Assembly (NCBI GenBank): GCA_035541415.1
Contig: DATKNI010000030.1
Coordinates: forward strand, 1,621 to 65,620
DNA from: Minisyncoccota bacterium
GTDB taxonomy: Bacteria; Patescibacteriota; Minisyncoccia; UBA6257; 2-01-FULL-56-20
Direction: 5' to 3'
Length of the DNA: 64,000 nucleotides
Part shown: piece after piece, positions 86 through 62,811 of the stretch
How the letters are laid out: every line of letters begins with the position of its first letter
Numbering within the stretch: the first letter of the stretch is position 1
Notes under the pieces: generated by a model
Told to the model about the DNA's origin: nothing
Databases searched by the model: none
The model's input: only the letters and a program-made list of their open reading frames with translations
Translations under genes and position numbers: made by a program

Positions 86-1807
86 TTATTTGAGCACGCG
101 GGCGGTGTTCAAATACCACGTCGGCACTTCGAGGAAGCGGTCGGAGGGATCGCTCAAAAGCTGCGGCGCCACCCCTTGCACATCCTTGTCGGTCACATAG
201 GTGTAGTCCGGGGAATAGAGGAAGATCGCCGGATTGTCATTCACGATTTGGTTTTCGGCGAGGTTGTAGTCGTTCGTGATGGCGGTCGTCGAAGCATTTT
301 CGCGGGCGTCTTCGATCGCTTTATCAACTTTGGGATTGCTGTAGATCGAAAGATTGAGGCCCGGATAGAACCGTTCGGATGAATCCCAAAAGGCATAGAG
401 GTCGGAGCTCGGCCCGAGCACGTTGCCGAAGATCAGCGCTTCGTAATCGCGATTCTTGATATCCTGGTTCACGATCACGTCGGCCGATGCGGGCATGAGG
501 TTTACCTGGACGCCGAGCGACTCCCAGGTGTTCTGGATCACGGTTGCGGTCTTTGCGAGGAAATCGATTTCGGGAACGGTGAGATTGATGGCGAGCGGAA
601 TCACCGAATGATTCACGAGCTTGTAGCGGAATCCCGGCGGCACGGGCGTTTCCGTTACTGACGAACTCGCCGAAGCCGAGCCCGTATTCGTAGAGCTCGC
701 GTCGGTTGCGTCGGGCGCCGGCTGCATGACCCATCCGGCGTTGGTAAGCGTTGTGGATGCGAAGTCGAGCGACGACGTCGTTACGATGTTTATGGCGTAC
801 GGCGCATCCGGAGGAATGGGGCCGAAAGCGGGGACGGCGTGCGCGCCCCATACCTGGTTTACGATGTCCTGCCGGTCGAGGGAATCCGCGAGGGCCATGC
901 GGACCGCGGGATCCTGGAGCGCGAGATTTTTGCTCTGGTTGAAGAATACGGCGTAGTAACTCGATGTGCGCCATGAGAACGTGTCGTAGGGACGGTTAAT
1001 CTCTGAGACCGCCTCGGGCGATGCGTTGCCGAACGCGTCGATCTGGCCGCTGTTGAATGCCGCGACGAGCGAATTCTCGTCGTTGAAGAATTGAAAATTA
1101 AAATTCTGGATGAGCGGGTTGTCGCCGTTGCCGTTCCATGCGGCAAGATTATACGACGTGATGAAGCCGTTTGGAGCCTTATCGTACGAATCAAATTTGT
1201 ACGGGCCGCTGCCGATCGGCTTCAGATTGTATTCGGAAAGGTGCCAGTTGCCCGGCGGCGCGTCGGCAAACAGATGCTTCGGCAGGATGTATAAGTTTTT
1301 GAGCGTGTCGCCGAAGTTGGCGTACGGATTCACGAGATTAAACTGCACTTCAAGTTCGCTCACGCGGCTTGCGGCGACGCCTTGCCAGCTCGGATAGAGG
1401 GGGGATTGCGCATCGGGGTCCTGGATGGACTGGACCGTAAAGACGATGTCGTCGCTCGTGAGTTTTTGTCCGTCGTGCCAGGTGAGGCCGTCTTTCAAAT
1501 GCACCGTCCAGACGCGCGTGTCGGACGAGACCGAAACATTATCCGCGATCCCTTCGAGGTTGCTGTACACCATTTTTACGAGGCCGAGGTCGGTTTCCGA
1601 GGTGGCGATCACCGGGTTCACGTATTCCGGCTGGCCGATCATGCCCTCCGTGAAGTCGCCGCCGGCCGCCGGAACGGCGCGGGTGACGCTCACAAAGACG
1701 ATGCTCATCACGACGATAAAGCTCGCCACGGCGCCCGTGAACGCAATCACAAAAAGAACGCGCTCGCCGCGCGTGAACACCCCGAAAATTTTTTTAAACC
1801 AATTCAT
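86..1807 (-). CDS. ABC transporter substrate-binding protein, family 5 (oligopeptide/nickel type)
   Basis: 573-aa ORF with an N-terminal TM/signal anchor and an OppA/DppA-like SBP_bac_5 body. ATG start at 1805-1807. Confidence 0.75.
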   Translation of the reverse strand: MNWFKKIFGVFTRGERVLFVIAFTGAVASFIVVMSIVFVSVTRAVPAAGGDFTEGMIGQPEYVNPVIATSETDLGLVKMVYSNLEGIADNVSVSSDTRVWTVHLKDGLTWHDGQKLTSDDIVFTVQSIQDPDAQSPLYPSWQGVAASRVSELEVQFNLVNPYANFGDTLKNLYILPKHLFADAPPGNWHLSEYNLKPIGSGPYKFDSYDKAPNGFITSYNLAAWNGNGDNPLIQNFNFQFFNDENSLVAAFNSGQIDAFGNASPEAVSEINRPYDTFSWRTSSYYAVFFNQSKNLALQDPAVRMALADSLDRQDIVNQVWGAHAVPAFGPIPPDAPYAINIVTTSSLDFASTTLTNAGWVMQPAPDATDASSTNTGSASASSSVTETPVPPGFRYKLVNHSVIPLAINLTVPEIDFLAKTATVIQNTWESLGVQVNLMPASADVIVNQDIKNRDYEALIFGNVLGPSSDLYAFWDSSERFYPGLNLSIYSNPKVDKAIEDARENASTTAITNDYNLAENQIVNDNPAIFLYSPDYTYVTDKDVQGVAPQLLSDPSDRFLEVPTWYLNTARVLK

Positions 1808-42734: not shown

Positions 42735-43286
42735 ATGATCACTTGGATTGTTCTCGCAATCGTAGCCATCCTTATTATCTGGATTATTGCCGCTTTCAAC
42801 GGCCTTGTCCGCTTGCGCACCCGCGCCCAGGAAGGCTGGTCAGACATCGACGTCCAGCTCAAGCGCCGCTATGACCTCATCCCGAATCTCGTTGAAACCG
42901 TAAAGGGATATGCCGCCCACGAATCAAGCGTTTTTGAAAATGTCACGAAGGCTCGCTCCGTCGCCATGCAGACGACCGGCCCCGCAAAGGCTGACGCGGA
43001 GAACCAGCTCTCGGGCGCATTGAAGTCGCTCTTCGCCGTTGCGGAAAATTATCCGGACCTCAAGGCGAATCAGAACTTTTTGAATTTGCAGAACGAACTC
43101 ACCGATACCGAAGACAAAATTCAAGCGGCACGCCGCTTCTATAACGGCATGGTGCGCGACTTCAACACCAAGACGCAAACATTTCCGTCCAATCTCATTG
43201 CGAGCTCGTTCAACTTCAAGCCGATGCAGTTCTTCGGCGATGACATGACGGCGGCTGAACGGCAACCGGTGCAAGTAAAATTTTAA
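42735..43286 (+). CDS. lemA: LemA family protein
   Basis: N-terminal TM plus the LemA domain ([18 protein letters not shown]...NELT..E..I..AR..YN). Confidence 0.8.
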
Positions 43287-49750: not shown

Positions 49751-51271
49751 CTATGCGAAACCCGGGAAGAAATCGGTTTTGATCTGCGTGCGAGGGACGC
49801 CGAGTTCGGCGAGCGTTTTCTTAAATTCGCTCACCATGCCGTGCGTGCCTGAAATGTAGAATGTGCGTTCGCGAAAATCGGGAGCGACGCTCTCGATGAG
49901 CTTCATGTCGATGCGGCCGATGCGGCCGTTGTGGCTCGGAGCTTTCGCCGCGGGATCGGTAATGGCGTAGACCGTGCGAAGCCCCCATTTTTTTTCGGCT
50001 TCATCAAAAATGTCCCGATATGCGATTTCGTTTTCATTGCGGTTCGAATAGAAGAGGATCGCGTCGCGCCGTTCGTTCATATCGGAAATATATTTCGCCA
50101 TGCTGCGGAACGGCGTGATGCCGATGCCGCCCGCGATGAAGATCAATTTCTTTTTGGGATCGTTCGGGAGCGTGAAATCGCCGGCGAGCTGTCCCGCAAC
50201 GATGGTTTCGCCGGGTTTGAGGTTCATGAGCGCGAACTTGAATGTACTCGAGTTTTCATAGAACTTCACGCCCAGGTGAACTTCCGGTTCGGTGGGAGAC
50301 GAAGCAATCGTAAAATAACGGCGATTGCCGCGGGTGTCTGCTTTCTGGTGCGCGAGCGTCCACTCAAGATATTGGCCGGGACGATGGTTGATTTTTGCAT
50401 CAGGCGCAAACTGGAAGTCGTCCATATCTTTTCCAACTTCGTGCTTGCCTTTCATGGTGAGCATGAACTTGCGCTTGGGACTTACGACATAGGAGAAGAC
50501 GTTGCCCGTGACGAGCGCGAGTTCCGGAATGGAATAGACGGCGCCCACATGGACATATGGAGAATAGAGGAGGCCGACGATTACGCCGTAGATGACGCGG
50601 AGCGTGCGGGTCGGCGGCGTTGTTAAGGGTTCCGTGAGCATGATCGTGCCGAAGAAGAAGATTGGCGTGTGGAGGACGATGCGCTGGATCGTGCCCCAGG
50701 GATCGAATATCGGGGCGAGCGCGATGCAGCTCACGATTGCGGCGGCGAAGAATGAAAGGAAGAGGTCGAAGCGCTGGAGCTTGCGAACGATGAGGAGGCC
50801 GCCCACGATGACGAATGCCATCATAGGGAGATTGCCGCCGACCCACCAGCTTGCATACTGATTGAGCGCGAAACCGGTGATGACGACGGCGAGCGCTGCA
50901 GGATTAAAGACGTGTTTCTTGCCGATAGCGATGATGTATTTCGAGGCCATCGCGATGAGGGCGGCGGCGAGGAGAAGTTCGATGTTCTGCAGCGCCCACG
51001 TTCCGGGCGTAATAATGAGCGCAAGAATGAGTCCCGTGAGATACGCCGATTCAACGCTCGGCTGGGCGCCCCATACTTTTGCAAAAATGATGTTAATAAT
51101 CCAGCAGGATCCCAAAAGGAAAAATGCCGTGAAGAGAATCGCGACGGGGCTGTAGGGGAGGATGCCGAGAGCTCCGAGAATGGCGGCGATCACAACATAC
51201 GCCTCAAGAATATAGAGGAGAAGGCGGTACATCGTTATCTTGTTGAGCAGGCGATCAATGAGTGCGATCAT
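49751..51271 (-). CDS. polytopic-membrane oxidoreductase with a C-terminal ferredoxin-NADP+-reductase-like FAD/NAD(P)-binding module
   Basis: N-terminal ~270 aa with 8 or more TM helices. The C-terminal FNR fold has RYFTIASSP (RxYS FAD motif) and LIFIAGGIGITPF (NAD(P)H motif). Confidence 0.6.
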   Translation of the reverse strand: MIALIDRLLNKITMYRLLLYILEAYVVIAAILGALGILPYSPVAILFTAFFLLGSCWIINIIFAKVWGAQPSVESAYLTGLILALIITPGTWALQNIELLLAAALIAMASKYIIAIGKKHVFNPAALAVVITGFALNQYASWWVGGNLPMMAFVIVGGLLIVRKLQRFDLFLSFFAAAIVSCIALAPIFDPWGTIQRIVLHTPIFFFGTIMLTEPLTTPPTRTLRVIYGVIVGLLYSPYVHVGAVYSIPELALVTGNVFSYVVSPKRKFMLTMKGKHEVGKDMDDFQFAPDAKINHRPGQYLEWTLAHQKADTRGNRRYFTIASSPTEPEVHLGVKFYENSSTFKFALMNLKPGETIVAGQLAGDFTLPNDPKKKLIFIAGGIGITPFRSMAKYISDMNERRDAILFYSNRNENEIAYRDIFDEAEKKWGLRTVYAITDPAAKAPSHNGRIGRIDMKLIESVAPDFRERTFYISGTHGMVSEFKKTLAELGVPRTQIKTDFFPGFA

Positions 51272-51283
51272 AGTGCCGTTTGT

Positions 51284-52033
51284 TTAATCGGGTCGGGCGA
51301 CATACGTCTCGAAGCCGGATGTCATGGTTGCTGTCTTATTATTATCTATCATATATCCTTCGAGTCCAGGAATGTTTTCGATGAAATGTATGGCGGCTTT
51401 GCCCATGGCAAATGCCGCCGTTGCGAACCGGTCAGCCTCGTAGATGTTCGGGCCGATGACGGTGAGGCTCACGATCTCGTCGATCGGTTTGCCGTCGCGC
51501 GGATTATAAATATGGAGGCCGCGGATGTACGTGCCCGAGGTGGCGACGCCTTCGGTTTTAACGCGCATGACTTTGACGTTCTCCGCTTCATTCCACGGAT
51601 TTTTGATTCCCACGGTCCACAATTTCCCTTCGGCATTCATGCCGTGTGGCTGAATATCGCCTCCGGCATCAACATAAAAATTCTTGAAGCCGTTCTTAAG
51701 GATGAGCTGTGCGGCATTCCAAATGGCCCAGCCCTTCACGAGGCCCGAAGGATCATACGTTCCGTTCGGCGTTTTGATATCAAAGTATCCGTTTGTCTCG
51801 CGCTTTGTTTCCTCGGAAAGCATGAAGACCAGTCTCATTTCCTCGCTCCAATCTTTTTCCGCGAGGCGCCCTTCGTTGATTGCCGTGATCTCACTCGTCT
51901 TTTTATAGGTGCTGAATTTTTCGTCGATATATTTGAAGTAGCCATATATTTCTTCGAATATGGCTTCGTCTGCGTGCGGGTCGACAATCTCAACCGCTAT
52001 GGGCATTCCCATGAGAACGCGAATCTGCTTCAT
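51284..52033 (-). CDS. apbE: FAD:protein FMN transferase
   Basis: 249 aa ApbE fold (GMPIAVEIVD..., D.GGIAKGWA-type core, ...GDI...G.N..G..W.VGI..P). 12-nt gap to the downstream gene. Confidence 0.75.
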   Translation of the reverse strand: MKQIRVLMGMPIAVEIVDPHADEAIFEEIYGYFKYIDEKFSTYKKTSEITAINEGRLAEKDWSEEMRLVFMLSEETKRETNGYFDIKTPNGTYDPSGLVKGWAIWNAAQLILKNGFKNFYVDAGGDIQPHGMNAEGKLWTVGIKNPWNEAENVKVMRVKTEGVATSGTYIRGLHIYNPRDGKPIDEIVSLTVIGPNIYEADRFATAAFAMGKAAIHFIENIPGLEGYMIDNNKTATMTSGFETYVARPD

Positions 52034-52069
52034 ATCGTTGCGGAATTATATGCGGGAGGCCGGCCGATG

Positions 52070-52612
52070 TTAGCTTTTGGCCTGCGAGAGCGCTGATGCG
52101 AGCGATTGTTGGAATGCCTGGCTGGTTTGCGTTGCGCCGGAAACGATGTCTACGGTGGCGCTCTGCGAAGCAATAGCTTCCTTTTTGAGCTGGGGGATTG
52201 CCATGCTGCTTACTTCGCTCGTATGCCCCGGTTCGTTAGGGTATTTGAGGAATTTTACATCCGTGAGCTTGCCGCCGCTCACGACCGCCGCCACTTGGAC
52301 CGTGCCATAAAATGCGTCAGCTGCGCTGCCCGTGTAGGTGCCGTTCCGATATTGGCCCGTTGAGCCTGTTCCGCCCGTTGAGCCTGTTCCGCCGGTCGAG
52401 GTTGTTACGGTTGAGCCAGTAGTTGTTCCGTTCCCATTCCCGGTTCCTCCGGCTGTCGTTGTCTGGTTGGAGCCGGTGCTGGTGCTGTCCGTCCCGCCAT
52501 TATTGGCGGCGACTTGCGAGTTTGAATCGCCATTTTGCCCGTTAAAAATAATATAGCCGGCGATAAGCACGACTACGGCAATCCCGAGAATATATTTCCA
52601 GGCGTTTTTCAT
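52070..52612 (-). CDS. FMN-binding domain protein (NqrC/RnfG-like), membrane-anchored, with a flavinylation motif
   Basis: ATG at 52610-52612 (MKNAWKYILGIAVVVL TM anchor), a G/S/T-rich linker and an FMN_bind domain ending in VDIVSGATQTSQAF, the S/T flavinylation site used by ApbE. Confidence 0.7.
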   Translation of the reverse strand: MKNAWKYILGIAVVVLIAGYIIFNGQNGDSNSQVAANNGGTDSTSTGSNQTTTAGGTGNGNGTTTGSTVTTSTGGTGSTGGTGSTGQYRNGTYTGSAADAFYGTVQVAAVVSGGKLTDVKFLKYPNEPGHTSEVSSMAIPQLKKEAIASQSATVDIVSGATQTSQAFQQSLASALSQAKS

Positions 52613-52693
52613 GCTTGTATTCCTATTTATACGTTTTACGATGGCGTTTTGGTTCGTAAGCAGTATATCATAATATCCGCTATAATAAGAGCC

Positions 52694-54652
52694 ATGTTGA
52701 CCGAAAAACCCATCAACCCCGACGATCTCGACCATGCCGTACGTCCGGGTGACGATTTCTTTGGTTACGTAAACAATATCTGGATCCGCAAAAACCCGAT
52801 TCCGGCAAATGAGGCCCGCTGGGGGACTTTTTATGTTTTGCGGTACGAGGTTGAGGAGCAGATCAAAAAAATTTTTGAAGGACTGGTCGCCACGCCCGCC
52901 GGGAAGCTCGACGACTCCGGGAAAAAAGTGAAATATTTTTATGAAAGCGGCATGGATGTCGATCATGTGAACGCGGAAGGCGATGCGCCGCTCGCGCCGC
53001 TCCTCGATGCCGTGAACGGCATTCACGACGTGAACGACCTCGTGCGGACGATCGGCTTTTTGCATCGCCGCGGAATCGGCGTTTTTTGGGCGCCGAGTCC
53101 CGAACCGGACGCAAAATCAAGCGACCGGACGGCGCTCTATTTTTCCCAGGCAGGGCTCAGCTTGCCCGACCGCGATTATTATGTGAATGCCGACGAGAAG
53201 AGCGTTGCGATCCGGAAACGGTACGCGGACTACGCCGCCCTCATGCTCGCACATTCTTCGATAGCAGCCGATGCCCAGCAGTTTTCAAAAATAAATGATA
53301 TCGAAAAGACGCTCGCGAAACATTCGATGACGCGCGTTGAACTTCGTGATTTCGAAAAGCAATATAACAAAATGTCGTGGGAAGAGCTTTCGAAACGCGC
53401 TCCGCACATTGACTGGAACATCTATTGCGAGGCGATTGCCATTCGCAAGCCGGAGTTTGTGATCGTGTGCCAGCCGGAGTTTATGGCGGCGGTGAGCGAG
53501 CTATTCCAATCTGTTCCGCTCGAATCGCTCAAAGCTTACCTGCGATGGCAGGTGCTCAATGCGATGTCGAATTTCTTAAGCGAAGATTTTGCCCACCGCT
53601 CGTTCGAGTTTTACGGCAAGACGTTCGGCGGCGCCACGGAGATCAAGCCGCGGTGGCGCCGCGTTTTGAATGTGGTGAACGGCATGCTCGATCAGGCCGT
53701 CGCCAAACTTTATGTCGAGCGCCATTTCAGCGCGGCGGCAAAGACGAGAGTCAATCAGCTCGTCGACCATTTGACGGAAGCGTATCGTGCCCGCATCAAG
53801 CGCCTCGATTGGATGAGCGACGCCACAAAAGAGAAGGCGCTTACCAAGCTGAACGCGATCAGCCGCAAGCTCGGCTATCCTGACGTGTGGCGCGATATCT
53901 CGGCGCTCACGATTGTTCCCGGCGCATATCTCGAGAACCGCCTGAACGCGCATATTTTTGAATTCGACCGGCAGATGAAAAAAATCGGCAAGCCCGTGGA
54001 CCGTTCCGAGTGGCTCATCTCGCCGCAAACGGTAAACGCGTTCTATCTTGGGCTTCAAAATGAAATCGATTTTCCGGCAGCGATTCTCCAGCCGCCGTTC
54101 TTTTATCCCGACGGCGATGACGCCGTGAACTTTGGCGGCATCGGCATGGCAATCGGCCACGAGCTTACTCACGGGTTCGACGATGAGGGCTCGCGCTTCG
54201 ATGCCAACGGGAATCTCACGAATTGGTGGACCGAAGACGACCGCGCGCGATTCGACAAGCTCACGGCGCGCCTCGCCGCGCAATTCGATGCCTACGAACT
54301 TCTGCCGGGCCTTCGCGTGAACGGCAAGCTCACGCTTGGTGAAAATATTGCCGACCTCGGCGGATTGCTGATCGCCTACGACGGGCTCACTTTGGCGCTC
54401 AAGGAAAATCCCGTGGGCGCTATTGACGGCTTTACGCCCTTTGAGCGGTTTTTCATCAGTTATGCCATCACCGAACGCTCCGTAGCGCGTGAGGAAGCCT
54501 TGCGGACGCAGGTCCAAACGGATCCGCATACGCCCGCGCCGTATCGCGTGAACGGCCCGCTTCCCAACATGGATGAATTTTATGAGGCATTTGACTGCAA
54601 ACCGGGCGATGCGCTCTGGCGGGATCCAAAGGACCGGGTGAAGATCTGGTGA
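52694..54652 (+). CDS. M13-family zinc metalloendopeptidase (PepO/neprilysin-like)
   Basis: HELTHGFDDEG (HExxH) and the downstream E...D/NAFY motifs; about 650 aa from ATG 52694. Confidence 0.85.
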   Translation: MLTEKPINPDDLDHAVRPGDDFFGYVNNIWIRKNPIPANEARWGTFYVLRYEVEEQIKKIFEGLVATPAGKLDDSGKKVKYFYESGMDVDHVNAEGDAPLAPLLDAVNGIHDVNDLVRTIGFLHRRGIGVFWAPSPEPDAKSSDRTALYFSQAGLSLPDRDYYVNADEKSVAIRKRYADYAALMLAHSSIAADAQQFSKINDIEKTLAKHSMTRVELRDFEKQYNKMSWEELSKRAPHIDWNIYCEAIAIRKPEFVIVCQPEFMAAVSELFQSVPLESLKAYLRWQVLNAMSNFLSEDFAHRSFEFYGKTFGGATEIKPRWRRVLNVVNGMLDQAVAKLYVERHFSAAAKTRVNQLVDHLTEAYRARIKRLDWMSDATKEKALTKLNAISRKLGYPDVWRDISALTIVPGAYLENRLNAHIFEFDRQMKKIGKPVDRSEWLISPQTVNAFYLGLQNEIDFPAAILQPPFFYPDGDDAVNFGGIGMAIGHELTHGFDDEGSRFDANGNLTNWWTEDDRARFDKLTARLAAQFDAYELLPGLRVNGKLTLGENIADLGGLLIAYDGLTLALKENPVGAIDGFTPFERFFISYAITERSVAREEALRTQVQTDPHTPAPYRVNGPLPNMDEFYEAFDCKPGDALWRDPKDRVKIW

Positions 54653-54740
54653 TCGCGCCCGCATTCCGGCTTTTATTTTAGATAAATTTAATCTGCGGCG
54701 TGGAGAATGAGAAGGTCGAATAAATAAAAAATTCACGCTT

Positions 54741-55877
54741 ATGAAAAAATATTGCGCCGCGCTTGCGGCAGCCGTGGTTTTGGTTGTGCCGGGGTTTCCC
54801 GTCGGTCAAATGCAAATCGCTTCCGTCGAGGCGAGCTATCACTTTGCGAATTATCTGGGCGCTCCGCCGATCCATATTTTCCGATCGGCGCAGAAATCGC
54901 CGAGCGGCCTCACGCCGCTTGAGATAAAGCATATTTATAATCTCCCGCTCACGGGAGGCGCAAGCAGTACGATTGCGCTTGTCGAGGCCTATTCCGCGCC
55001 AACGCTCGAAAGCGATCTGGGCGTCTTTGACGACACCTATTCGCTTGCGCCGTGCACCGTAAAGAATAAATGTCTTGAGATCCACAGCATGGGGAGTGGC
55101 GTCGCCGCGAATGGCGGATGGGCGCTCGAAACAACGCTCGACGTGGAATGGGCGCATGCCATCGCCCCGCAAGCAAAAATCCTGGTCGTACAGGCAAAAA
55201 CGCAGAGCGGCGCGAATCTGCTCGCTGCGCTCGATTATGCAGCGGCCCGAAGCGACGTCGATGCGATTTCGATAAGCTGGGGCGGTCCTGAGTTTCCGGA
55301 AGAAACATCGCTCGACGGGCATTTTTTGAGCGCTTCGGGCGCGGCATTTTTCGCGTCATCCGGTGACCACGGCGCCGGCACGAGTTGGCCCGCGGCATCG
55401 CCGAACGTAGTTGCGGTCGGAGGAACCTCGCTTGAACTCTTGCCGAGCGGCTCGCTTGTTTCTGAATCGGCGTGGGCCGGAAGCGGGGGAGGAGTAAGCG
55501 CCTATGAGCCCGAGCCGGATTATCAGCGCGCGTACAATATTCCGAAAGCCAGCGGCCATCGCGCGATTCCGGATGTTGCATACAACGCCAATCCGCGATC
55601 GGGATATGCGGTTTACAAATCGAACGGCGCCACAAAGAACGGCTGGTATGTCGTTGGCGGCACGTCGGCGGGGGCTCCTCAATGGGCGGCCATCTACGCG
55701 ATCGGCCGTTCGGCAACGCTCCCGGTCATGTACGGAGATAAAGCTTCGTCGGGCACGCTGCAATATTTCCGGGACATTGCGAGCGGCGCAAATGGCACGT
55801 GTAAATATTATTGCGACGCGCGGAAACGATACGACTACGTAACCGGCTTAGGAACGCCGCTCACGGTTCATTTTTAA
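54741..55877 (+). CDS. S53 (sedolisin)-family serine-carboxyl peptidase, secreted
   Basis: Signal peptide, ETTLDVEWAHAIAP (Glu/Asp catalytic region), GGTSAGAPQWAA (catalytic Ser in GTSxxAP). Short for S53, so a minimal catalytic domain. Confidence 0.6.
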   Translation: MKKYCAALAAAVVLVVPGFPVGQMQIASVEASYHFANYLGAPPIHIFRSAQKSPSGLTPLEIKHIYNLPLTGGASSTIALVEAYSAPTLESDLGVFDDTYSLAPCTVKNKCLEIHSMGSGVAANGGWALETTLDVEWAHAIAPQAKILVVQAKTQSGANLLAALDYAAARSDVDAISISWGGPEFPEETSLDGHFLSASGAAFFASSGDHGAGTSWPAASPNVVAVGGTSLELLPSGSLVSESAWAGSGGGVSAYEPEPDYQRAYNIPKASGHRAIPDVAYNANPRSGYAVYKSNGATKNGWYVVGGTSAGAPQWAAIYAIGRSATLPVMYGDKASSGTLQYFRDIASGANGTCKYYCDARKRYDYVTGLGTPLTVHF

Positions 55878-55915
55878 AGATTAAATTTTTATTAAATGAA
55901 TATTGCTTCACGATC

Positions 55916-56344
55916 ATGAAAACGTATGATGAGATTATGGAGATTTTGCGGAATGAGTTCAAGGAGGCCATCGAAGATCTCGCGCTCATGATTCAGCGGG
56001 AGTTTGTCGCTGTTCGTGAGGAGATGCACGCACAAACTGTGATGCTGCAGACGGAGATGAAAGAACAGGCCGCAGTATTGCGAGAAGAGATGAAAGAGCA
56101 AGCAGCAATGTTGCGCGCGGAGATGTATGGGCAAGTGGCAACGTTGCGCAAAGAGATGCACGATGAGGCCGTTGCTGTGAGGGGCGAGATGAAGGGTGGC
56201 CTTGATGCACTGCGCACCGAATTAAAGGGCGATATTCAGGAATTCCGGCAGGAAACCCAAGCGAATTTTGCCCTGATGAACGGGATCTTGCGCAACCATG
56301 AATATCGGCTCGAAAGGGTCGAGAAAAAGCTCGATATTTCCTAG
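55916..56344 (+). CDS. small protein built of eight tandem 11-residue amphipathic repeats
   Basis: 142 aa; residues 33-120 are 8 copies of [LV]R.EM....A.. (VREEMHAQTVM / LQTEMKEQAAV / LREEMKEQAAM / LRAEMYGQVAT / LRKEMHDEAVA / VRGEMKGGLDA / LRTELKGDIQE / FRQETQANFAL). Confidence 0.5.
   Translation: MKTYDEIMEILRNEFKEAIEDLALMIQREFVAVREEMHAQTVMLQTEMKEQAAVLREEMKEQAAMLRAEMYGQVATLRKEMHDEAVAVRGEMKGGLDALRTELKGDIQEFRQETQANFALMNGILRNHEYRLERVEKKLDIS
56012..56275 (+). repeat. 8 x 33-bp in-frame tandem repeats encoding the 11-mer units
   Basis: Periodicity seen in the translated sequence. DNA repeats are degenerate, about 60-70% identity between units. Confidence 0.45.
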
Positions 56345-56406
56345 CGTATAGGTCGTTCTGGGGATTGGAAATTTGACCGGTTTTCTGATACAATAAGAGG
56401 TATCTT

Positions 56407-58473
56407 ATGGCAGAAAAAACCTCCAACACCAAAGGCAGCGCTTCATACGGTGCCAAGGACATTTATGTGCTTGAAGGGCTCGAACCGGTGCGCAAACGCC
56501 CCGGTATGTACATCGGTTCAACCGGTTCCCTTGGGTTGCATCACCTCGTCTGGGAGGTTGTCGACAACTCGATCGACGAAGCGATGGCGGGATTCGCAAA
56601 GAATGTCACCGTCGAAATTTTGCCGGGCAACGAAGTGGCCGTCACGGACGATGGCCGCGGCATTCCCGTCGAAGTCCATCCGCAAACCAAGAAATCCACG
56701 CTTGAAACCGTTTTGACGACGCTCCACGCCGGCGGCAAATTCGGCGGCGAGTCATATAAAGTCTCAGGCGGCCTCCACGGCGTGGGTGTTTCCGTGGTGA
56801 ACGCGCTTTCCGAATGGGTGAAGGTTGAAGTTGAGCGCGACGGCGGGATGTTTGTGCAGGAATATGAGCGGGGCAAACCGAAATATAAGGTAAAGAAAGT
56901 CGGTTCATCAAAACGGACCGGCACAAAAACCACATTCAAGCCGGATGCGCAAGTTTTTTCCGAGCTTGAATTCAATGATAAGACGATCATTGAGCATTTG
57001 CGCCAGCAGGCGTATCTCACAAAAGGCGTCCGCATCAATATTATTGACCGCCGTCCCAAAGCGCCTCTTTTTTACGGCTTTTACTTTGAAGGCGGCGTGC
57101 TGTCGTTCGTAAAATATCTTGCACAGAAAAAGAATGCGCTCCACGAAGATATTTTTTACGTTGAGAAAGAAAACCAGAACATCGACGTTGAGTGCGCCTT
57201 CATGTATGTCGACGACACTCGCGCGCAAGAAATGAGTTTTGCGAACAACATTTACACGCCGGAAGGCGGCATGCACCTCACCGGATTCCGCTCGGCCTTA
57301 ACGCGCTCGCTCAATAACTTTGCCCGCGCCGAAGGCTATCTCAAAGAAAAAGAAGAAAACCTCACGAGCGACGACGTCCGCGAAGGGCAGATTGTCGTAT
57401 TATCGGTGAAGCTTCGCGAGCCGCAGTTTGAAGGCCAAACCAAGGCGAAGCTCGGCAACCCGGAAGCGCGGACGGCGGTTGAGGCTGTTATCAACGAAGC
57501 GCTCAAAGAGTTTTTGGAAAAACATCCGCAGGAAGCAAAAGCCGTTATTGCAAAAGTTCTCCTCACTGCCAAAGCCCGCCTTGCGGCAAAGGCAGCGCGT
57601 GAAACCGTTTTGCGCAAAGGCGCATTCGAAGGCCTCACGCTCCCGGGCAAGCTTGCCGATTGCATTTCAAAGAGCGCCGAAGAATCAGAGCTTTTCATCG
57701 TGGAGGGCGATTCCGCAGGCGGCACGGCCAAGCAGGGGAGAAACCGCCAGAACCAGGCAATCCTGCCGCTTCGCGGAAAAATTTTGAACGTTGAACGCGC
57801 CCGTCTCGACAAAATGCTTGCGAACGCAGAAGTCCGCGCGCTTGTTGTTGCGATCGGTACGGCAATCGGCGAGGAGTTCAACATGGAAAAATTACGTTAC
57901 CACAAGATCGTCATCATGACCGATGCCGATGTCGATGGCGCGCACATCCGCACGCTTTTACTCACCTTGTTCTACCGTTATTTCCGCGAAGTGGTTGACG
58001 GCGGTTACATTTATATCGCTCAGCCGCCGCTCTACAAAATTCAGCTTGGCAAGCAGTTCAAATATGCCTTTTCGGATTCCGAAAAAGAAAAAGCCATCGC
58101 GGAACTTCAGAAGAATGCTCCGGTCCGCGGTGCGTCGGCAAAAGGCGATGCGAAGGGAAAAAAGAAAACGGAAGACGTTGCGGAGCGCGAAGCCGGAACC
58201 GCCAGCGAAGGAGAGAGAGTTGAGGAGGGCGCTGTTATGGCCGACGGCAAACGCATGCCGAACGTCCAGCGCTACAAGGGTCTTGGCGAAATGAATGCCG
58301 AACAGCTGTGGGAGACCACCATGAATCCGGAGAACCGCCTCATGAAGCAGGTGATGATCGAAGATGCGGAAGCCGCAGACAAACTTTTTGACGTTCTGAT
58401 GGGCGACGCCGTGGAGCCGCGCAAAAACTTCATCCAGGCGCACGCGGCAACGGTGCAGAATTTGGATATTTAA
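56407..58473 (+). CDS. gyrB: DNA gyrase subunit B
   Basis: GHKL ATPase motifs (EVVDNSIDEA, GLHGVG), Toprim EGDSAGG, QRYKGLGEMN; contains a ~35-aa charged low-complexity insertion. Confidence 0.95.
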   Translation: MAEKTSNTKGSASYGAKDIYVLEGLEPVRKRPGMYIGSTGSLGLHHLVWEVVDNSIDEAMAGFAKNVTVEILPGNEVAVTDDGRGIPVEVHPQTKKSTLETVLTTLHAGGKFGGESYKVSGGLHGVGVSVVNALSEWVKVEVERDGGMFVQEYERGKPKYKVKKVGSSKRTGTKTTFKPDAQVFSELEFNDKTIIEHLRQQAYLTKGVRINIIDRRPKAPLFYGFYFEGGVLSFVKYLAQKKNALHEDIFYVEKENQNIDVECAFMYVDDTRAQEMSFANNIYTPEGGMHLTGFRSALTRSLNNFARAEGYLKEKEENLTSDDVREGQIVVLSVKLREPQFEGQTKAKLGNPEARTAVEAVINEALKEFLEKHPQEAKAVIAKVLLTAKARLAAKAARETVLRKGAFEGLTLPGKLADCISKSAEESELFIVEGDSAGGTAKQGRNRQNQAILPLRGKILNVERARLDKMLANAEVRALVVAIGTAIGEEFNMEKLRYHKIVIMTDADVDGAHIRTLLLTLFYRYFREVVDGGYIYIAQPPLYKIQLGKQFKYAFSDSEKEKAIAELQKNAPVRGASAKGDAKGKKKTEDVAEREAGTASEGERVEEGAVMADGKRMPNVQRYKGLGEMNAEQLWETTMNPENRLMKQVMIEDAEAADKLFDVLMGDAVEPRKNFIQAHAATVQNLDI

Positions 58474-58540
58474 GATAAAAAAACAGACCAGATTGTCGCC
58501 AATCCGGCCTGTCGATCCGATGCTATCGATTCACGCTGTC

Positions 58541-59302
58541 TCAATGGAAAACCGCTAGGGCGAATCCATAGAGGTTGCTCTGGCTGCTCAAGGTTCCGCT
58601 GAAGCTAAAGCTGCCCGACGGCGTAATGGCGTCTCCGTATCCGGCTGAACCCCAGCTCGGTTCTATTTGGGCCCGAAGATACGTGAGCGGTGCCGTGCTC
58701 GACCATTTCGTGATGGTTCCTGAGTTGAACGCAATGAATCCCACCCCCAGGCTTCCCGAGGAAGTCGTCAGTGCGTTGCTCGCGAACTGACCATTGGTGA
58801 TCGAGCTTCCCCGGAAGGTTTTGTTAGTCGGACTGCAGTTCGGCAGCCCCGAATACTCGTTCAGAAACATCACCGCATCGCCCCAGCCCGGAATGTTGCC
58901 GATCTCGATCGTGGGTTTCTGGCCGCCTTCTGTCGACGACACCTTCTCGTAATAGGTATCGACATACCACGAACCAACTGCTTGTGGACTTCCAAAAACC
59001 CCAGGAAGATTGGCCCCGCTGGTCGCGTCAAGTACGCTTTCCATTTCCCCGGTTTTGGTGGCGATTTCAATGATCAAGCAGTTGCCCGTGGTCACGCTGT
59101 GCGTATAGGTCCCACTGAAGTTGGGCACGATTGAGGTGCTGGCAAAGACCACTCCTTGAATGAACGATGGACCGGAGGGTGGAGGCGGTGTCGATGCGTT
59201 TGGAATTTTGTACACAACGGTTACGGAATCGGCTTGGCAAAATGCCGATTCCGTCAAACAGGCAACAGCAAGAACCAAAGCAAACACTTTCAGTGATTTC
59301 AT
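58541..59302 (-). CDS. hypothetical secreted beta-rich protein
   Basis: Signal peptide (LAVACLTESAFC), Pro-rich linker, ~200-aa S/T/G-rich beta-strand domain, no recognisable catalytic motif. Confidence 0.4.
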   Translation of the reverse strand: MKSLKVFALVLAVACLTESAFCQADSVTVVYKIPNASTPPPPSGPSFIQGVVFASTSIVPNFSGTYTHSVTTGNCLIIEIATKTGEMESVLDATSGANLPGVFGSPQAVGSWYVDTYYEKVSSTEGGQKPTIEIGNIPGWGDAVMFLNEYSGLPNCSPTNKTFRGSSITNGQFASNALTTSSGSLGVGFIAFNSGTITKWSSTAPLTYLRAQIEPSWGSAGYGDAITPSGSFSFSGTLSSQSNLYGFALAVFH

Positions 59303-59522
59303 TGTTTCTCCTTTGGATTGTCAACGTACCGCTTGGTAACGCAAAATATAAAATAGCAAATTCAAAGAATTATGTCAATTTTCTCGCCGCACGCAAATTT
59401 GCTCTTGACCGCTTGCTCGCAAAAGATTACACTGCTTGTATCTCCAAAACCGCGAGTATAGCGGTCTTTTATTTGCAAAAGACGGTTGCCCGCGAGAAAA
59501 ATCAGGAGTATACTAGACACCA

Positions 59523-59711
59523 ATGTTCGATCGCATCAAACACTTTTTTATCGAGTCGCGCAATGAGTTGCGCCACGTGAACTGGCCGACGCGCCAAGAG
59601 GCGATCCGCCTCACGGGCATCGTGATCGGCCTTTCGCTCTCGCTCGCCGTATTTCTGGGCGCGTGCGACTACCTCTTCACTTACATCATGCGCACGTTTA
59701 TCGTAAAATAA
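59523..59711 (+). CDS. secE: preprotein translocase subunit SecE
   Basis: 62 aa, ELRHVNWPTRQEA followed by a single TM; located immediately upstream of nusG. Confidence 0.7.
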   Translation: MFDRIKHFFIESRNELRHVNWPTRQEAIRLTGIVIGLSLSLAVFLGACDYLFTYIMRTFIVK

Positions 59712-59723
59712 ATATCTAGGGAA

Positions 59724-60293
59724 ATGGCATTAGCTTCGCACCAAGGTGCGCACAACGAAAAACCGCAGATCCGGCAGTGGTATGCCGTCCAGACGTATTC
59801 GGGCTACGAAGAAGCCGTCGCCCGCTATTTGAAGCAGCGCGTCGAATCGCTCGCGATGAGCGACAAGATTTTCAACGTCCTCGTTCCGAAAGAAAAGACG
59901 ATCAAAGTGAAGGGCGGCAAGCGCCAGACGGTTGAAGAGAAGATTTATCCGGGGTATGTGCTCGTCGAAATGATCCTCACCGAAGATTCGTGGTACGTCG
60001 TCCGCAACACGCCGCGCGTCACCGGTTTCGTCGGTCCCGATAACACCACCCCGACGCCGCTTTCCAAAGATGAAGTTGATTTGCTCCTCGCGCGCTCCGG
60101 CCGCGACGAGAGCAAGGTCATGCTTGACCTCAAGGTAGGCGATCTGGTAAAAATAACCGACGGTCCGTTCAAGGAATACGACGGCAAAGTTGCCGAAGTA
60201 AACGAAGAAAAGGGGAGCATCAAAGTGCTCGTACCGATCTTCGGACGCGATACCGCCGTGGAGCTCGACTCGCTCCAGGTACGAAAGATATAA
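59724..60293 (+). CDS. nusG: transcription termination/antitermination factor NusG
   Basis: NGN domain (WYAVQTYSGYEE) and C-terminal KOW (VGDLVKITDGPFKEYDGKV). Confidence 0.85.
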   Translation: MALASHQGAHNEKPQIRQWYAVQTYSGYEEAVARYLKQRVESLAMSDKIFNVLVPKEKTIKVKGGKRQTVEEKIYPGYVLVEMILTEDSWYVVRNTPRVTGFVGPDNTTPTPLSKDEVDLLLARSGRDESKVMLDLKVGDLVKITDGPFKEYDGKVAEVNEEKGSIKVLVPIFGRDTAVELDSLQVRKI

Positions 60294-60336
60294 TCAATCA
60301 GAAACAATAAATTAGAAACTAAGGTCTACTAGAAAT

Positions 60337-60540
60337 ATGGCTCAACAGTGTTTCTTCTGTTCGCAAAACTTAAAGAATATTGATTATAAGGAGATCGAAT
60401 TGCTCCGGCGCTTTGTGTCGAGCCAATCCAAGATCATCGACCCGCGCCATACGAGCGTGTGCGCAAAGCATCAGCGGAAATTGGCGCTCGCCATCAAGCG
60501 CGCGCGGTTTATGGGGCTTCTCCCGTACGTACGCAAATAA
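60337..60540 (+). CDS. rpsR: 30S ribosomal protein bS18
   Basis: 67 aa, IDYKE..LLRRFVS....I..R..T.VCAKHQRKLA.AIKRAR..GLLPY. Confidence 0.8.
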   Translation: MAQQCFFCSQNLKNIDYKEIELLRRFVSSQSKIIDPRHTSVCAKHQRKLALAIKRARFMGLLPYVRK

Positions 60541-60543
60541 TAA

Positions 60544-60568
60544 GCGCCCCGGAAGGGGCGTTTTTGTT
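60544..60568 (+). terminator. rho-independent terminator (gcgcccc-ggaa-ggggcg + TTTTTGTTT)
   Basis: Read directly, 4 nt after the rpsR stop. Confidence 0.65.
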
Positions 60569-60586
60569 TCGTGGTAAAATTGAGAA

Positions 60587-61144
60587 ATGTCTTTTAACCA
60601 GCGCGCGTTCCTGTGGGTCCATCATTTCATGGGCGCAAGTCCGTGGCTCGATGGATTCGGCGTTTTTCTCGCGGAATGGCTTCCCTATTTCCTCGTCCTC
60701 GGATTTTTCATGCTTCTCCTTAGCCAGCCGGGATGGCGCAAGAAATTTTATTGGTTTGCCGAAGGGGCGATCGCGATCATGGTCTCCCGCGGCATCGTCA
60801 CGGAAACCATCCGACTCTTCTACCATTACGAGCGGCCGTTTTCGTTTTATCATTTTGCACCCCTCATCGTTGGCGCTGGCTGGTCGTTCCCGTCCGGCCA
60901 TGCCGCGTGGTTCTTTGCGATGGCAACGACGATCTGGTATATGGATCGGAAATGGGGGATTGCGTTTTATATTTTTGCGCTCGTGAACGGCATTTCGCGC
61001 GTTTACGTCGGCGTCCATTGGCCGTTCGACATCGTGGGCGGCATTGCGGTTGGCATTCTTTCGGGGATCGTCGTGCATTGGCTCCTCACGTCAAGCCGCG
61101 AAGGGATTTATAAAACCGCAACTCCGGTTGCGGCTCAACGCTAA
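60587..61144 (+). CDS. PAP2-family phosphatase (undecaprenyl-diphosphatase/lipid phosphatase type)
   Basis: PSGH and SRVYVGVHWPFD acid-phosphatase motifs, 5-6 TM. Confidence 0.7.
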   Translation: MSFNQRAFLWVHHFMGASPWLDGFGVFLAEWLPYFLVLGFFMLLLSQPGWRKKFYWFAEGAIAIMVSRGIVTETIRLFYHYERPFSFYHFAPLIVGAGWSFPSGHAAWFFAMATTIWYMDRKWGIAFYIFALVNGISRVYVGVHWPFDIVGGIAVGILSGIVVHWLLTSSREGIYKTATPVAAQR

Positions 61145-61158
61145 GAACGTCGTTTGCG

Positions 61159-61560
61159 CTACGCGATCGTTGCGGTGCAATATGCGCACCGGGTCGCTTT
61201 GACCGGGATGTTCGAGAGGCATTCAGGGCACGTTTTTGTGGTCGCTTCCGGCGGCGGGCCTTTTTTGATCCGCTCATTGATTTTATTGATTGGGAGCACC
61301 ACGAAGAAATAAATGGTTGCGGCGAGAATAAGGAACGAGATCACATTGTTCAAAAAATCGCCGTACATGAATTGGCTGCCGTGGACGGTGAAGGTGAGAT
61401 TGCTGAAATTGGGCTGGGTCGCGATGGCCGCGATGAGCGGCGTGAGGAGGTCTTTTACGAGCGCGCTTACGACGCCATTGAACGCGGCTCCAATCATGAT
61501 GCCGACGGCGAGATCGATGACGTTGCCGCGCAGGATGAACTGCCGGAATCCCTGTAGCAT
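61159..61560 (-). CDS. mscL: large-conductance mechanosensitive channel MscL with C-terminal CxxC-X13-CxxC extension
   Basis: N-terminus MLQGFRQFILRGNVIDLAVGIMIGAAF canonical for MscL. C-terminal TCPEC...CAYC zinc-ribbon-like tail. Confidence 0.8.
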   Translation of the reverse strand: MLQGFRQFILRGNVIDLAVGIMIGAAFNGVVSALVKDLLTPLIAAIATQPNFSNLTFTVHGSQFMYGDFLNNVISFLILAATIYFFVVLPINKINERIKKGPPPEATTKTCPECLSNIPVKATRCAYCTATIA

Positions 61561-61596
61561 GCTTTTATTATACACGCCTCAAATTCCGCTGGGCGC

Positions 61597-62514
61597 CTAG
61601 AATCTAAAGAGGCTGAGCTGGATGAGGCGTGAACGGAGGAGGTCGAGAATCTGCGATGGCGGCAGGACGAAGCGGCGGATGGCCACGGTTACCGTCTGGC
61701 CGCCTCCGGCGCGGCTTACCGTAAAGCTCGCGCCGTCATTGCCGAGCGGCGATGGTGCTGCGAGAACACTCCCATTCCGCGAAATCATCGTGACTTCTTT
61801 TGCGCCGGTTTGCGCAATCGTCTGATGTACGCCGTTCACGGCGGCCGCTCCTTCCGAGAATGAAATGCTCCCGAAGTTGTCGAGCGGCAGGGTGCCGACA
61901 TTCGAGCTTGGCATTTCTTGGATCCATTCCGCGGATGAATGATCGGAATTATAGGACAGGTCGAGGTGATCGGTGTCGCCGGTCGTATTGTTTCTATAGG
62001 AAACCCGCCACGTGCCCGGATCCGATTCCTCGAGCGATACGCTTATTGAGTCGCCGGCGTGCACCGGGAAAGAAATCTGTTGCATGTCGTCGGGCAGCAA
62101 TTCGTACCAGGCGGCGTAGCGTACCGAACCATTCGGGTCGGTGATCGCCTGGGTGCCGGCTTGGATGAGATTGTGGCCGGTGACGCCGCCGATGCCTACC
62201 CACGTTGCGTCGGCCGAGGTTCGGTCCGCGCTTGGAACGGAAGGAATGGTCCACGTTCCGCCGACCGCCGTAAAGGATCCTTCCGTTGAAACGTAGCCCG
62301 CCCAGTTGAGCGACTCATTCGAATTGACGCCGGAATCCGGCGCGCTCGGGTATTGCGGATAAACAATCTGCGCGATTTGCGGACCGTCGTTTGTTCGGGA
62401 AAATGAGAGCCACGAAAATGGAAGCGAGAGCTGCGGGAATGGCGCTGCGAATGCCATAATAGGCATGGCAGCAGCGATGACTGCGGCCGCGAGCATTCGT
62501 AATAGAGTCTTCAT
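61597..62514 (-). CDS. G1-family glutamic peptidase (eqolisin/scytalidoglutamic peptidase-like), secreted
   Basis: Signal peptide plus colinear G1 motifs: SLNWAGYV, ATWVGIGG...LIQAG (catalytic Gln), YAAWYELLP, AGDSISV, SAEWIQE (catalytic Glu). Confidence 0.7.
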   Translation of the reverse strand: MKTLLRMLAAAVIAAAMPIMAFAAPFPQLSLPFSWLSFSRTNDGPQIAQIVYPQYPSAPDSGVNSNESLNWAGYVSTEGSFTAVGGTWTIPSVPSADRTSADATWVGIGGVTGHNLIQAGTQAITDPNGSVRYAAWYELLPDDMQQISFPVHAGDSISVSLEESDPGTWRVSYRNNTTGDTDHLDLSYNSDHSSAEWIQEMPSSNVGTLPLDNFGSISFSEGAAAVNGVHQTIAQTGAKEVTMISRNGSVLAAPSPLGNDGASFTVSRAGGGQTVTVAIRRFVLPPSQILDLLRSRLIQLSLFRF

Positions 62515-62616: not shown

Positions 62617-62811
62617 ATGCCTCGAAAGTACAGCAGAAAATCGCAGAATAAAGTTCGCCGCGCCATGCACGAGATGAAGCGTGGAAAATTGAAGAGCGGC
62701 CGCAGCGGGAAAACGGTCCGCAGCCGCAAGCAGGCGATTGCGATCGGACTTTCCGAAGCGCGCCGTTCGGGTGCCAAAGTCCCGAAGCCGAAGCGCGGCA
62801 GGCGCCGATAA
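62617..62811 (+). CDS. small basic protein (DUF6496-like)
   Basis: 64 aa, Lys/Arg-rich, MHE.KRG.LKSGRSGK.V.SRKQAIAIGLSEAR; family call from memory only. Confidence 0.4.
   Translation: MPRKYSRKSQNKVRRAMHEMKRGKLKSGRSGKTVRSRKQAIAIGLSEARRSGAKVPKPKRGRRR

Follow-up and report, generated by a model that had tools for sequence, protein, structure and literature searches.

The window analysed here, a stretch of 64,000 nucleotides from a member of Candidatus Paceibacterota (CPR/Patescibacteria), contains three peptidase genes within 10 kb, coding for representatives of the families M13, S53 and G1. These assignments, proposed by an earlier sequence-only reading, proved correct (by Pfam for M13 and G1, and by a match to kumamolisin for S53), and the three open reading frames were found exactly where that reading had located them, together with all the motifs it quoted (at residue 489 in M13; 130 and 306 in S53; 68, 104, 117, 135 and 195 in G1). 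There is nothing exceptional about the three proteins, which carry annotations already and belong to families common in CPR. The relevant features of the window are the following.

86..1807, minus strand: OppA-like family-5 solute-binding protein (Pfam SBP_bac_5, 7e-55)
52694..54652, plus strand: M13 (PepO-type) zinc oligoendopeptidase, 652 aa, without a signal peptide
54741..55877, plus strand: putatively secreted S53 (sedolisin-type) peptidase without a prodomain, 378 aa (kumamolisin match, fold)
54741..54833, plus strand: S53 signal peptide, residues 1-31, with predicted cleavage after VEA (hydropathy, homologues)
54834..54896, plus strand: S53 N-terminal extension of ~21 residues (SYHFANYLGAPPIHIFRSAQK), replacing a ~185-residue prodomain and including a conserved P-P-x-H strand
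54897..55874, plus strand: S53 catalytic domain with Glu130, Asp134, Asp209 (oxyanion) and Ser309 (kumamolisin alignment)
61597..62514, minus strand: putatively secreted G1 (eqolisin) glutamic peptidase, 305 aa (PF01828)
62446..62514, minus strand: G1 signal peptide, residues 1-23, MKTLLRMLAAAVIAAAMPIMAFA (hydropathy 2.52, K/R n-region, AFA c-region)
61729..62316, minus strand: G1 catalytic beta-sandwich domain, residues ~67-262, with Gln118, Glu200 and, in place of SGP Asp43, Gly109 (alignment)
61600..61728, minus strand: G1 C-terminal tail, residues 263-305, basic and amphipathic, varying among homologues

The M13 protein exhibits the domains and motifs of its family. It matches the Pfam models M13_N (2e-117) and M13 (1e-63), and contains the HExxH motif within HELTHGFDDEG, the third zinc ligand (ENxADxGG) within GENIADLGG at residue 549, the substrate-binding NAFY motif within VNAFY at residue 447, and also YRVNG. 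Over its full length it is collinear with bacterial PepO/M13 enzymes, including PepO of Lactococcus and Zmp1 of Mycobacterium tuberculosis, the latter also being among the end-to-end matches in the structural database; the solved structures 9eyg_A (likewise 652 aa long) and 9kn2_A and 9fma_A are matched at 1.7e-148, 1.9e-144 and 1.9e-144, respectively. It differs from the lactococcal enzyme in that its match to the NCBIfam PepO model (3.9e-103), at 346 bits, stays below the equivalog cut-off of 1000 bits.

All three peptidases had been thought to carry signal peptides, which holds for S53 and G1 (both with predicted Sec signals) but not for M13. Within the first 60 residues of the latter (MLTEKPINPDD...) the maximal ten-residue hydropathy is 0.92, a value like those of GyrB and NusG, compared with 3.16 for S53 and 2.52 for G1 by the same measure. 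Its Pfam domain begins already at residue 18, and no export signal or membrane anchor was found either here or in four orthologues (L010, L011, L016 and L017), which start directly at the domain. In this it resembles lactococcal PepO, which is not known to have a signal peptide or a membrane anchor, and differs from mammalian neprilysin and ECE-1 with their type-II membrane anchor. The protein is therefore not part of a secreted set, and judging from its N-terminus it is most likely a cytoplasmic PepO-type oligoendopeptidase. This location is probable rather than proven, since the signal-less PepO of some streptococci is reportedly found outside the cell.

The S53 protein is the most interesting detail of the region; it belongs to a large and highly conserved subfamily that lacks the sedolisin prodomain. 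An identical protein (P0121, 100% identity) is recorded under Candidatus Paceibacterota with the NCBI name S53 family peptidase, which, like the closest named G1 matches, speaks for the CPR origin of the window. No Pfam match was obtained at E<=0.01, because the protein has diverged from the S8 model while retaining its motifs; mature kumamolisin (residues 2-349), however, is matched at 4e-22, and at 3e-29 when a profile is used. Identity with kumamolisin and Pseudomonas sedolisin, both of which are secreted, is ~30% over the whole catalytic domain, and the Glu-Asp-Ser triad and the oxyanion Asp are aligned, with E130, D134, D209 and S309 corresponding to kumamolisin E78, D82, D164 and S278. 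An AlphaFold2 model built from a 120-sequence alignment (pLDDT 80.3, pTM 0.82) predicts a subtilisin-like alpha/beta fold nearer to sedolisins than to S8 peptidases: in a Foldseek search of the PDB the top 17 places (2e-17 to 3e-11) are taken by sedolisins and TPP1, and subtilases come next at ~1e-8. Kumamolisin, kumamolisin-As and Pseudomonas sedolisin (MEROPS S53; 1gt9, 1sio and 1ga1) share the modelled fold at 2e-17 to 4e-16, with TM ~0.6.

The predicted signal peptide of S53 starts with an MKK n-region, and in the homologues its final A-x-A is directly followed by [AS]-Y-[HR]-F, which is conserved. Throughout the CPR clade four cysteines (Cys105, 111, 354 and 358) do not vary, in keeping with export. 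A large prosegment is typical of characterised S53 members, although MEROPS does not include it in defining the peptidase unit, and in the kumamolisin proenzyme (1t1e) it constitutes a ~185-residue activation prodomain. No such prodomain (PF09286) was found in S53 by Pfam, and the profile alignment on pro-kumamolisin is limited to residues 185-536. What follows the signal peptide instead is the ~21-residue extension, the last five residues of which align with the RSQSA end of the pro-kumamolisin linker. The extension is conserved both in the 120-sequence alignment and across CPR, Bathyarchaeia and Acidobacteriota, with P43 present in 65 and H45 in 58 of 80 homologues, and in the model residues 41-60 have pLDDT >90, with a strand at 45-51. 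Besides this conserved strand with P-P-x-H, two pairs of cysteines set the protein apart from kumamolisin and sedolisin, and its predicted pI is 5.2-5.7. In most homologous open reading frames a signal-peptide start lies ~20-60 residues upstream of the domain, and all members examined from CPR, Bathyarchaeia, Acidobacteriota and some Burkholderiales (Paraburkholderia, Massilia) have the short form. S53-like relatives make up at least 6,737 clusters at 90% identity.

The G1 protein is matched by Peptidase_A4 (G1) PF01828 at 4.3e-36 (score 124.7 bits, curated threshold 22.3), and its profile matches AGP at 2.8e-22 and SGP at 7.9e-20. A sandwich of two seven-stranded beta-sheets is predicted from this homology. 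With pepG1 of Alicyclobacillus sp., the sole characterised bacterial G1 peptidase that we found, and with the fungal enzymes SGP and AGP (1s2b, 1y43), all of them secreted, it shares the PF01828 domain, the Gln/Glu dyad and the motifs NW.GY, WVGI.G, Q.G, AWYE.P and AEWI.E. Gln118 aligns with AGP Q24 and SGP Q53, and Glu200 with AGP E110 and SGP E136. The claim that every eqolisin signature is present thus stands nearly in full, the exception being the equivalent of SGP Asp43, which is Gly109 (WVGIGG versus WVGIDG); this glycine is invariant in 22 of 22 clade sequences, as are Q118, E196 and E200. Like other bacterial G1 peptidases, the protein has no conserved disulfides. Fungal G1 enzymes have a ~40-residue basic prosegment that is cleaved off at acid pH, whereas here the signal peptide is followed by a non-basic linker of ~44 residues, variable or nearly absent in homologues, so that a typical basic propeptide is apparently missing. 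The protein differs from pepG1, SGP and AGP also in its basic or amphipathic C-terminal tail, which in homologues is of variable length and contains many aromatic residues as well as R, Q and L. An alternative start at 62553 (318 aa) was rejected: the resulting protein is not on record, and the one starting at 62514 is on record exactly and agrees with the initial Met of the homologues.

By their residues and signals, S53 and G1 are both predicted to be catalytically competent and Sec-exported. It could be objected that one or both are pseudo-peptidases, that is, binding proteins that have lost catalysis, given the absence of an S53 Pfam match and the glycine in G1 at the position of SGP Asp43, the SGP mutant D43A retaining ~20% of activity (PMC6154417). 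We consider this very improbable. Of 80 genome homologues, 79-80 retain the S53 catalytic residues, and the missing Pfam match is explained by the divergence noted above; in G1 the dyad is invariant, and eqolisins of fungi, bacteria and archaea repeatedly show Gly43 as a tolerated replacement (PMC6154417). Since the catalytic residues are intact (in M13, too, HExxH and GENIAD are in place), the pseudo-peptidase objection that accompanied the sequence-only reading fails.

The three genes had further been taken as one functional neighbourhood, but its conservation argues otherwise. M13 and S53 are adjacent on the same strand with a gap of 88 bp; G1 starts 5.7 kb beyond the end of S53 (55877) on the opposite strand, behind gyrB, secE, nusG, rpsR, a PAP2 gene and mscL. 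The block FAD-reductase-ApbE-FMN_bind-(M13)-S53-gyrB-nusG-PAP2-mscL is kept in nine related genomes, including L084, and M13 is missing from four of them (L004, L005, L006 and L013). Among related genomes, only L002, which is of the same species, and L084 have G1 beside mscL, and there is just one further species in which G1 is close to S53. No partner gene of S53 is shared across lineages in 80 loci from CPR, Bathyarchaeia and Acidobacteriota, which show only lineage-specific synteny blocks. The neighbourhood is thus lineage-specific synteny decaying in the ordinary manner, not a dedicated cluster or operon, and as such it is unimportant in itself.

The same observations bear on the idea that the three enzymes form one secreted digestive set, operating in acidic surroundings or at the surface of a host cell. 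Two of them are indeed predicted to be exported and belong to acid-active, pepstatin-insensitive families, M13 and S53 are co-oriented, and a consensus promoter and terminator scan, itself uninformative for this gap, found no strong terminator-like site between them. Many homologous S53 loci also come from records titled bog, fen, palsa or SPRUCE, presumably peat sites, so that acidic habitats would be plausible for them. The signal-less M13 in every orthologue examined, the location of G1 on the opposite strand with six housekeeping genes intervening, and the gain or loss of M13 and G1 independently of S53 nevertheless make such a set quite unlikely. A 253-aa secreted protein encoded between gyrB and secE was evaluated as a divergent G1-like protein or inhibitor and dismissed (hhalign probability 0.15%); it is an ORFan, as a homology search returned no sequence but its own. 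An Rfam scan of the window yielded two tRNAs only.

The explanation that we prefer, with a probability of roughly 0.68, is that three independent peptidase genes have come to lie within 10 kb by chance, two of them encoding Sec-exported endopeptidases of acid type (S53 and G1) and the third a cytoplasmic PepO-type enzyme (M13), with amino-acid scavenging, a general function, as their most likely joint role. CPR bacteria lack most amino-acid biosynthesis, and their amino-acid supply is consequently an open practical question for cultivation. By analogy with the lactococcal PrtP-Opp-PepO scheme, S53 and G1 would cut extracellular proteins into oligopeptides, these would be imported, and the M13 enzyme would cleave them inside the cell, providing amino acids to an organism with little biosynthetic capacity. 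The OppA-like protein encoded in the same window is possibly a component of the peptide uptake; no Opp permease gene adjoins its gene, as the next gene on the source contig encodes RNase J. The nutritional role, the order of the steps and the pH behaviour of S53, G1 and PepO are what we infer from these data. In favour of this explanation, cultured Patescibacteria express secreted peptidase-like and amino-acid-binding proteins (PMC10936435). Against it, the S53 and G1 enzymes characterised so far are active at pH 3-5 (PMC3009609, PMC6411800), and depending on the pH of the habitat the two enzymes described here might have no activity there or a different pH tuning. Our search of the literature for links of G1 or S53 with CPR/Patescibacteria returned nothing relevant. 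Both families are common in CPR genomes with their catalytic residues kept, making them concrete candidates for assays.

For a digestive exoenzyme S53 is unusually conserved: identity across CPR lineages amounts to 55-79%, and in L027 conservation equals that of GyrB, possibly a sign that the substrate is a specific one. Most CPR bacteria live as episymbionts. S53 and/or G1 might be specific proteases that process the cell's own surface proteins (pili or others) or attack the host surface. The conservation of S53 across CPR classes, with its four invariant cysteines and conserved mature N-terminus, would agree with this, as would the variable G1 tails, which could hold that enzyme at the surface, and the expression of secreted peptidase-like proteins in parasitic co-cultures (PMC10936435). 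However, no conserved partner or substrate gene adjoins S53 in any lineage, and G1 is patchy even in close relatives. The short S53 subfamily occurs, moreover, in Acidobacteriota, Bathyarchaeia, Paraburkholderia and Massilia, taken as free-living, which argues for a general function. On balance, we regard specialised processing or attack as improbable, and favour scavenging.

A more speculative proposal, which we find possible yet doubtful, is that the S53 protein exemplifies a large, uncharacterised sedolisin subfamily folding and activating without a prodomain chaperone, the linker remnant with P-P-x-H serving as a mini-propeptide or a built-in strand. Together with the equally widespread, apparently prosegment-less G1 enzymes it would constitute a zymogen-free "carboxyl peptidase" toolkit of ultra-small bacteria, implying, if true, either that the variants are adapted to a pH near neutral or that the medium is acidified locally where symbiont and host meet. 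Such sedolisins would offer a test case for clan SB folding without an intramolecular chaperone, and would also test whether "acid" peptidase chemistry is truly restricted to acidic habitats.

The notion of G1 as an essentially fungal family is outdated. A search with a profile of this clade returned 11,516 clusters at 50% identity with E<=1e-3, 7,197 with E<=1e-10 and 1,620 with E<=1e-30, and G1-like relatives comprise at least 2,993 clusters at 90% identity. Named close matches, bearing the NCBI name "G1 family glutamic endopeptidase", come from Paceibacterota, Saccharibacteria and one Chloroflexota genome, the closest being from Paceibacterota at ~48-54% identity. Whereas pepG1, SGP and AGP stem from Firmicutes or fungi, the G1 protein described here belongs to a very large CPR-centred clade, and these counts update the published view of eqolisins as "rare" (PMC6154417, PMC6411800).

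The three peptidase ORFs singled out by the earlier sequence-only reading were recovered at the positions it had reported, and every motif quoted from them is found in the ORF translations:

52694-54652, + strand, M13 ORF (PepO-type zinc peptidase)
54741-55877, + strand, S53 ORF (sedolisin type)
61597-62514, - strand, G1 ORF (eqolisin, a glutamic peptidase)

The interval between S53 and G1 is occupied by genes for a 142-aa coiled-coil protein, gyrB, a 253-aa ORFan (- strand), secE, nusG, rpsR, a PAP2 phosphatase and mscL. G1 lies on the strand opposite to M13 and S53, upstream of and co-directional with mscL at a distance of 21 bp; the two genes are co-directional in an 827-kb relative (L084) as well, and the gap is ~21-23 bp in both genomes. 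GC content is even along the window (~0.52-0.57), and no paralogue of M13, S53 or G1 occurs elsewhere within it. The same DNA is carried by the metagenome contigs L002 and L003, the NCBI records of the ORFan and of a protein identical to S53 are titled “MAG TPA: Candidatus Paceibacterota bacterium”, and the nearest genomes are uncultured CPR/Patescibacteria MAGs with a GyrB identity of 73-83%; the window thus derives from a CPR bacterium. According to the gene calls of the identical contig L002, rpsR (S18) follows secE-nusG (59523-60540, +) instead of the usual rplK-rplA. Beside G1 there is a small divergent DUF6496 gene (62665-62811, +), likewise present in L084 (9736-9924).

A block consisting of FAD/NAD reductase, ApbE, FMN_bind, (M13), S53, gyrB, nusG, PAP2 and mscL is kept in nine related genomes, L084 included, with M13 being absent from four of the nine, and G1 is found beside mscL only in L002, which represents the same species, and in L084. 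Loci from more distant CPR bacteria, archaea and acidobacteria have no S53 neighbours in common, and an all-against-all clustering of the ORFs flanking S53 returned lineage-specific blocks only. The three peptidase genes are gained and lost independently of one another, and they lie close together because gene order has been inherited; they form neither an operon nor a system. The proposed peptidase neighbourhood is an ordinary one; the observations behind that idea largely stand, as does a part of their interpretation. Two points are worth retaining: there is a sedolisin subfamily devoid of the prodomain, and both carboxyl-type families are abundant in CPR bacteria.

The S53 protein has no match in Pfam at E<=0.01. 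Its assignment is provided by comparison with mature kumamolisin, which is matched by phmmer at 4e-22 (residues 2-349) and by a profile of 120 S53 sequences at 3e-29. An AlphaFold2 model built from the 120-sequence input (pLDDT 80.3, pTM 0.82) has pro-kumamolisin, kumamolisin-As, sedolisin and TPP1 as its best Foldseek matches in the PDB (2e-17 to 3e-11), with subtilases clearly weaker (~1e-8). The counterparts of kumamolisin E78, D82, D164 and S278 are E130, D134, D209 and S309, which are retained in 79-80 of 80 genomic homologues; the catalytic set is in place. Four Cys residues are invariant across the CPR clade, a pattern consistent with the predicted extracellular location.

With its 378 aa, the protein comprises a signal peptide with an A-x-A end, ~21 further residues (SYHFANYLGAPPIHIFRSAQK) and the catalytic domain. 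The S53 profile covers only residues 185-536 of pro-kumamolisin (1t1e), and the protein therefore has no counterpart of the ~185-residue prodomain. The short extension ends in five residues that align with the terminal RSQSA of the kumamolisin linker, a hint that it may be a linker remnant. It is conserved, and the AlphaFold2 model is confident in this part (pLDDT above 90 for residues 41-60), with a strand at residues 45-51. The subfamily is large and well conserved: at least 6,737 of the 8,000 candidates scored are matches, the best 120 of these 6,737 being 59-79% identical and 332-402 aa long. The species-representative genomes that carry it belong to many CPR lineages, Bathyarchaeia, Acidobacteriota, Paraburkholderia and Massilia, and nearly all members combine the short N-terminus with a P-P-x-H-like motif. 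In Bathyarchaeia the short-N proteins often extend far beyond the catalytic domain at the C-terminus; those of L051, L053, L057, L061, L062, L064, L066, L070 and L073 have large extensions of this kind and are 800-1250 aa long.

G1 is recognized by PF01828 at 124.7 bits, and the profile of its clade matches the aspergilloglutamic peptidase (AGP) at 2.8e-22 and the scytalidoglutamic peptidase (SGP) at 7.9e-20. As counted along the printed alignments, Q118 is equivalent to AGP Q24 and SGP Q53, and E200, the last E of AEWIQE, to AGP E110 and SGP E136. The Gln/Glu dyad expected of a glutamic peptidase is hence present, and Q118, E196 and E200 show no variation among 22 clade members. A supporting residue, Asp43 of SGP, is in contrast replaced by Gly109 in the window protein and across its clade; the SGP mutant D43A is reported to keep ~20% activity, but G43 is also reported to recur among natural variants (PMC6154417). 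The signal peptide and the domain are separated by a non-basic segment that in homologues is variable or nearly absent, which sets it apart from the basic ~40-residue prosegment of fungal eqolisins. The C-terminal tails of the homologues vary in length and abound in R, Q, L and aromatic residues. In the C-terminal 40-120 residues of the homologue alignment A2 (P0002-P0111), many CPR G1 proteins contain “GRGWRR.GVG...GY” followed by a Q/L/R-rich helix-like tail, which may together serve as a surface-retention element; the window protein retains only the terminal amphipathic part.

In 2010, MEROPS listed five bacterial and one archaeal eqolisin entries (PMC3009609); eqolisins were termed “rare acid proteases” in 2018 (PMC6154417), and in cultured prokaryotes glutamic peptidases are described as rare among secreted peptidases (PMC6411800). 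Among 1.84 billion representatives at 50% identity, the G1 clade profile matches 11,516 proteins at E<=1e-3, 7,197 at E<=1e-10 and 1,620 at E<=1e-30, and a word-indexed search returned at least 2,993 clusters at 90%. Close matches with names come from Paceibacterota, Saccharibacteria and Chloroflexota, and the NCBI name is already “G1 family glutamic endopeptidase”. Our literature searches found no paper that connects either G1 or S53 with CPR, although the annotation is already present in public databases.

M13 is a PepO-type enzyme. Residues 18-649 correspond to Pfam M13_N plus M13, the motifs HELTH, GENIADLGG, VNAFY and YRVNG are all found, and the best solved structures are bacterial M13/PepO proteins matched end-to-end (9eyg_A, 1.7e-148; also PepO 9kn2 and 9fma, and Zmp1). 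Signal peptides had been ascribed to all three peptidases, which is borne out for S53 and G1 and fails for M13: its maximal 10-residue hydropathy within the first 60 residues is 0.92, in the range of GyrB and NusG, compared with 3.16 for S53 and 2.52 for G1, and its orthologues in L010, L011, L016 and L017 start a few residues ahead of the M13_N domain. The enzyme is most likely cytoplasmic. The sole in-frame extension upstream runs into the divergent FMN_bind gene and has too little hydrophobicity for a signal. Within 52680-52693 (+), a perfect TATAAT box ends 7 nt before the start codon and no ribosome-binding site is obvious, suggesting a leaderless mRNA or one with a very short leader.

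At the level of sequence, the window is shown to encode two predicted exported endopeptidases with intact catalytic residues and one signal-less oligoendopeptidase. S53 and G1 would degrade external protein, the resulting peptides would be imported, and PepO would then cleave them in the cytoplasm, a scheme that would resemble the lactococcal proteolytic system, in which secreted protease, import and PepO are likewise combined. The window does encode an OppA-like SBP_bac_5 protein (86-1807, -; L086, 6784-8172), with no ABC permease or ATPase genes beside it and RNase J next on the source contig. Cultured Patescibacteria express secreted peptidase-like and amino-acid-binding proteins (PMC10936435). 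That S53 and G1 are instead processing or host-attack proteases seems improbable to us: such a role gains slight support from how strongly S53 is conserved, but the same subfamily occurs in lineages taken as free-living (Acidobacteriota, Bathyarchaeia and the S53-carrying Burkholderiales genera), and no partner gene is conserved beside S53.

As for the acidic setting of the putative external digestion, characterized relatives of S53 and G1 have optima at pH 3-5 (PMC3009609, PMC6411800). The predicted pI of the mature proteins is 5.2-5.7 for S53 and 4.2-4.6 for G1. Many homologous S53 loci come from records with bog, fen, palsa or SPRUCE in their titles, which we take to be peat sites; such titles would fit acidic habitats, or may be explained by database composition.

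Several other genes of the window deserve mention. The ORFan between gyrB and secE (58541-59302, -; 253 aa, 195 aa in the NCBI call) has a signal peptide and perhaps a lipobox (LAVAC). It has no Pfam match, a search of 5.8 billion proteins returned nothing except the protein of this very MAG, and it is not present in related genomes. The signal-less 142-aa protein between S53 and gyrB (55916-56344, +) is built from heptad or 11-mer repeats resembling REEMKEQAAVL and scores 28.9 bits against Apolipoprotein, under the cut-off of 90. It has no tblastn match in the related loci searched; L084, from outside that set, carries a gene of 172 aa in the corresponding place. Immediately upstream of M13, in divergent orientation, lie three genes (49751-52612, -). 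One encodes a 506-aa membrane protein whose C-terminal domain is of the FNR-like NAD_binding_1 type, another an ApbE flavin transferase, and the third an FMN_bind protein, secreted or anchored, that contains a long Gly/Thr/Ser linker; their synteny is kept in related CPR genomes, and the module has the appearance of an extracytosolic flavinylated redox system. A 755-aa protein (29745-32012, +) combines a signal-like N-terminus with an LCAT (lecithin:cholesterol acyltransferase/phospholipase-like) domain (6.7e-19) and is a possible lipid-scavenging exoenzyme in an organism that is not known to synthesize lipids. The fourth peptidase of the window is an HtpX-type M48 membrane protease (43393-44313, +; 7.8e-29), preceded by an ORF (42720-43286, +) that appears LemA-like by eye.
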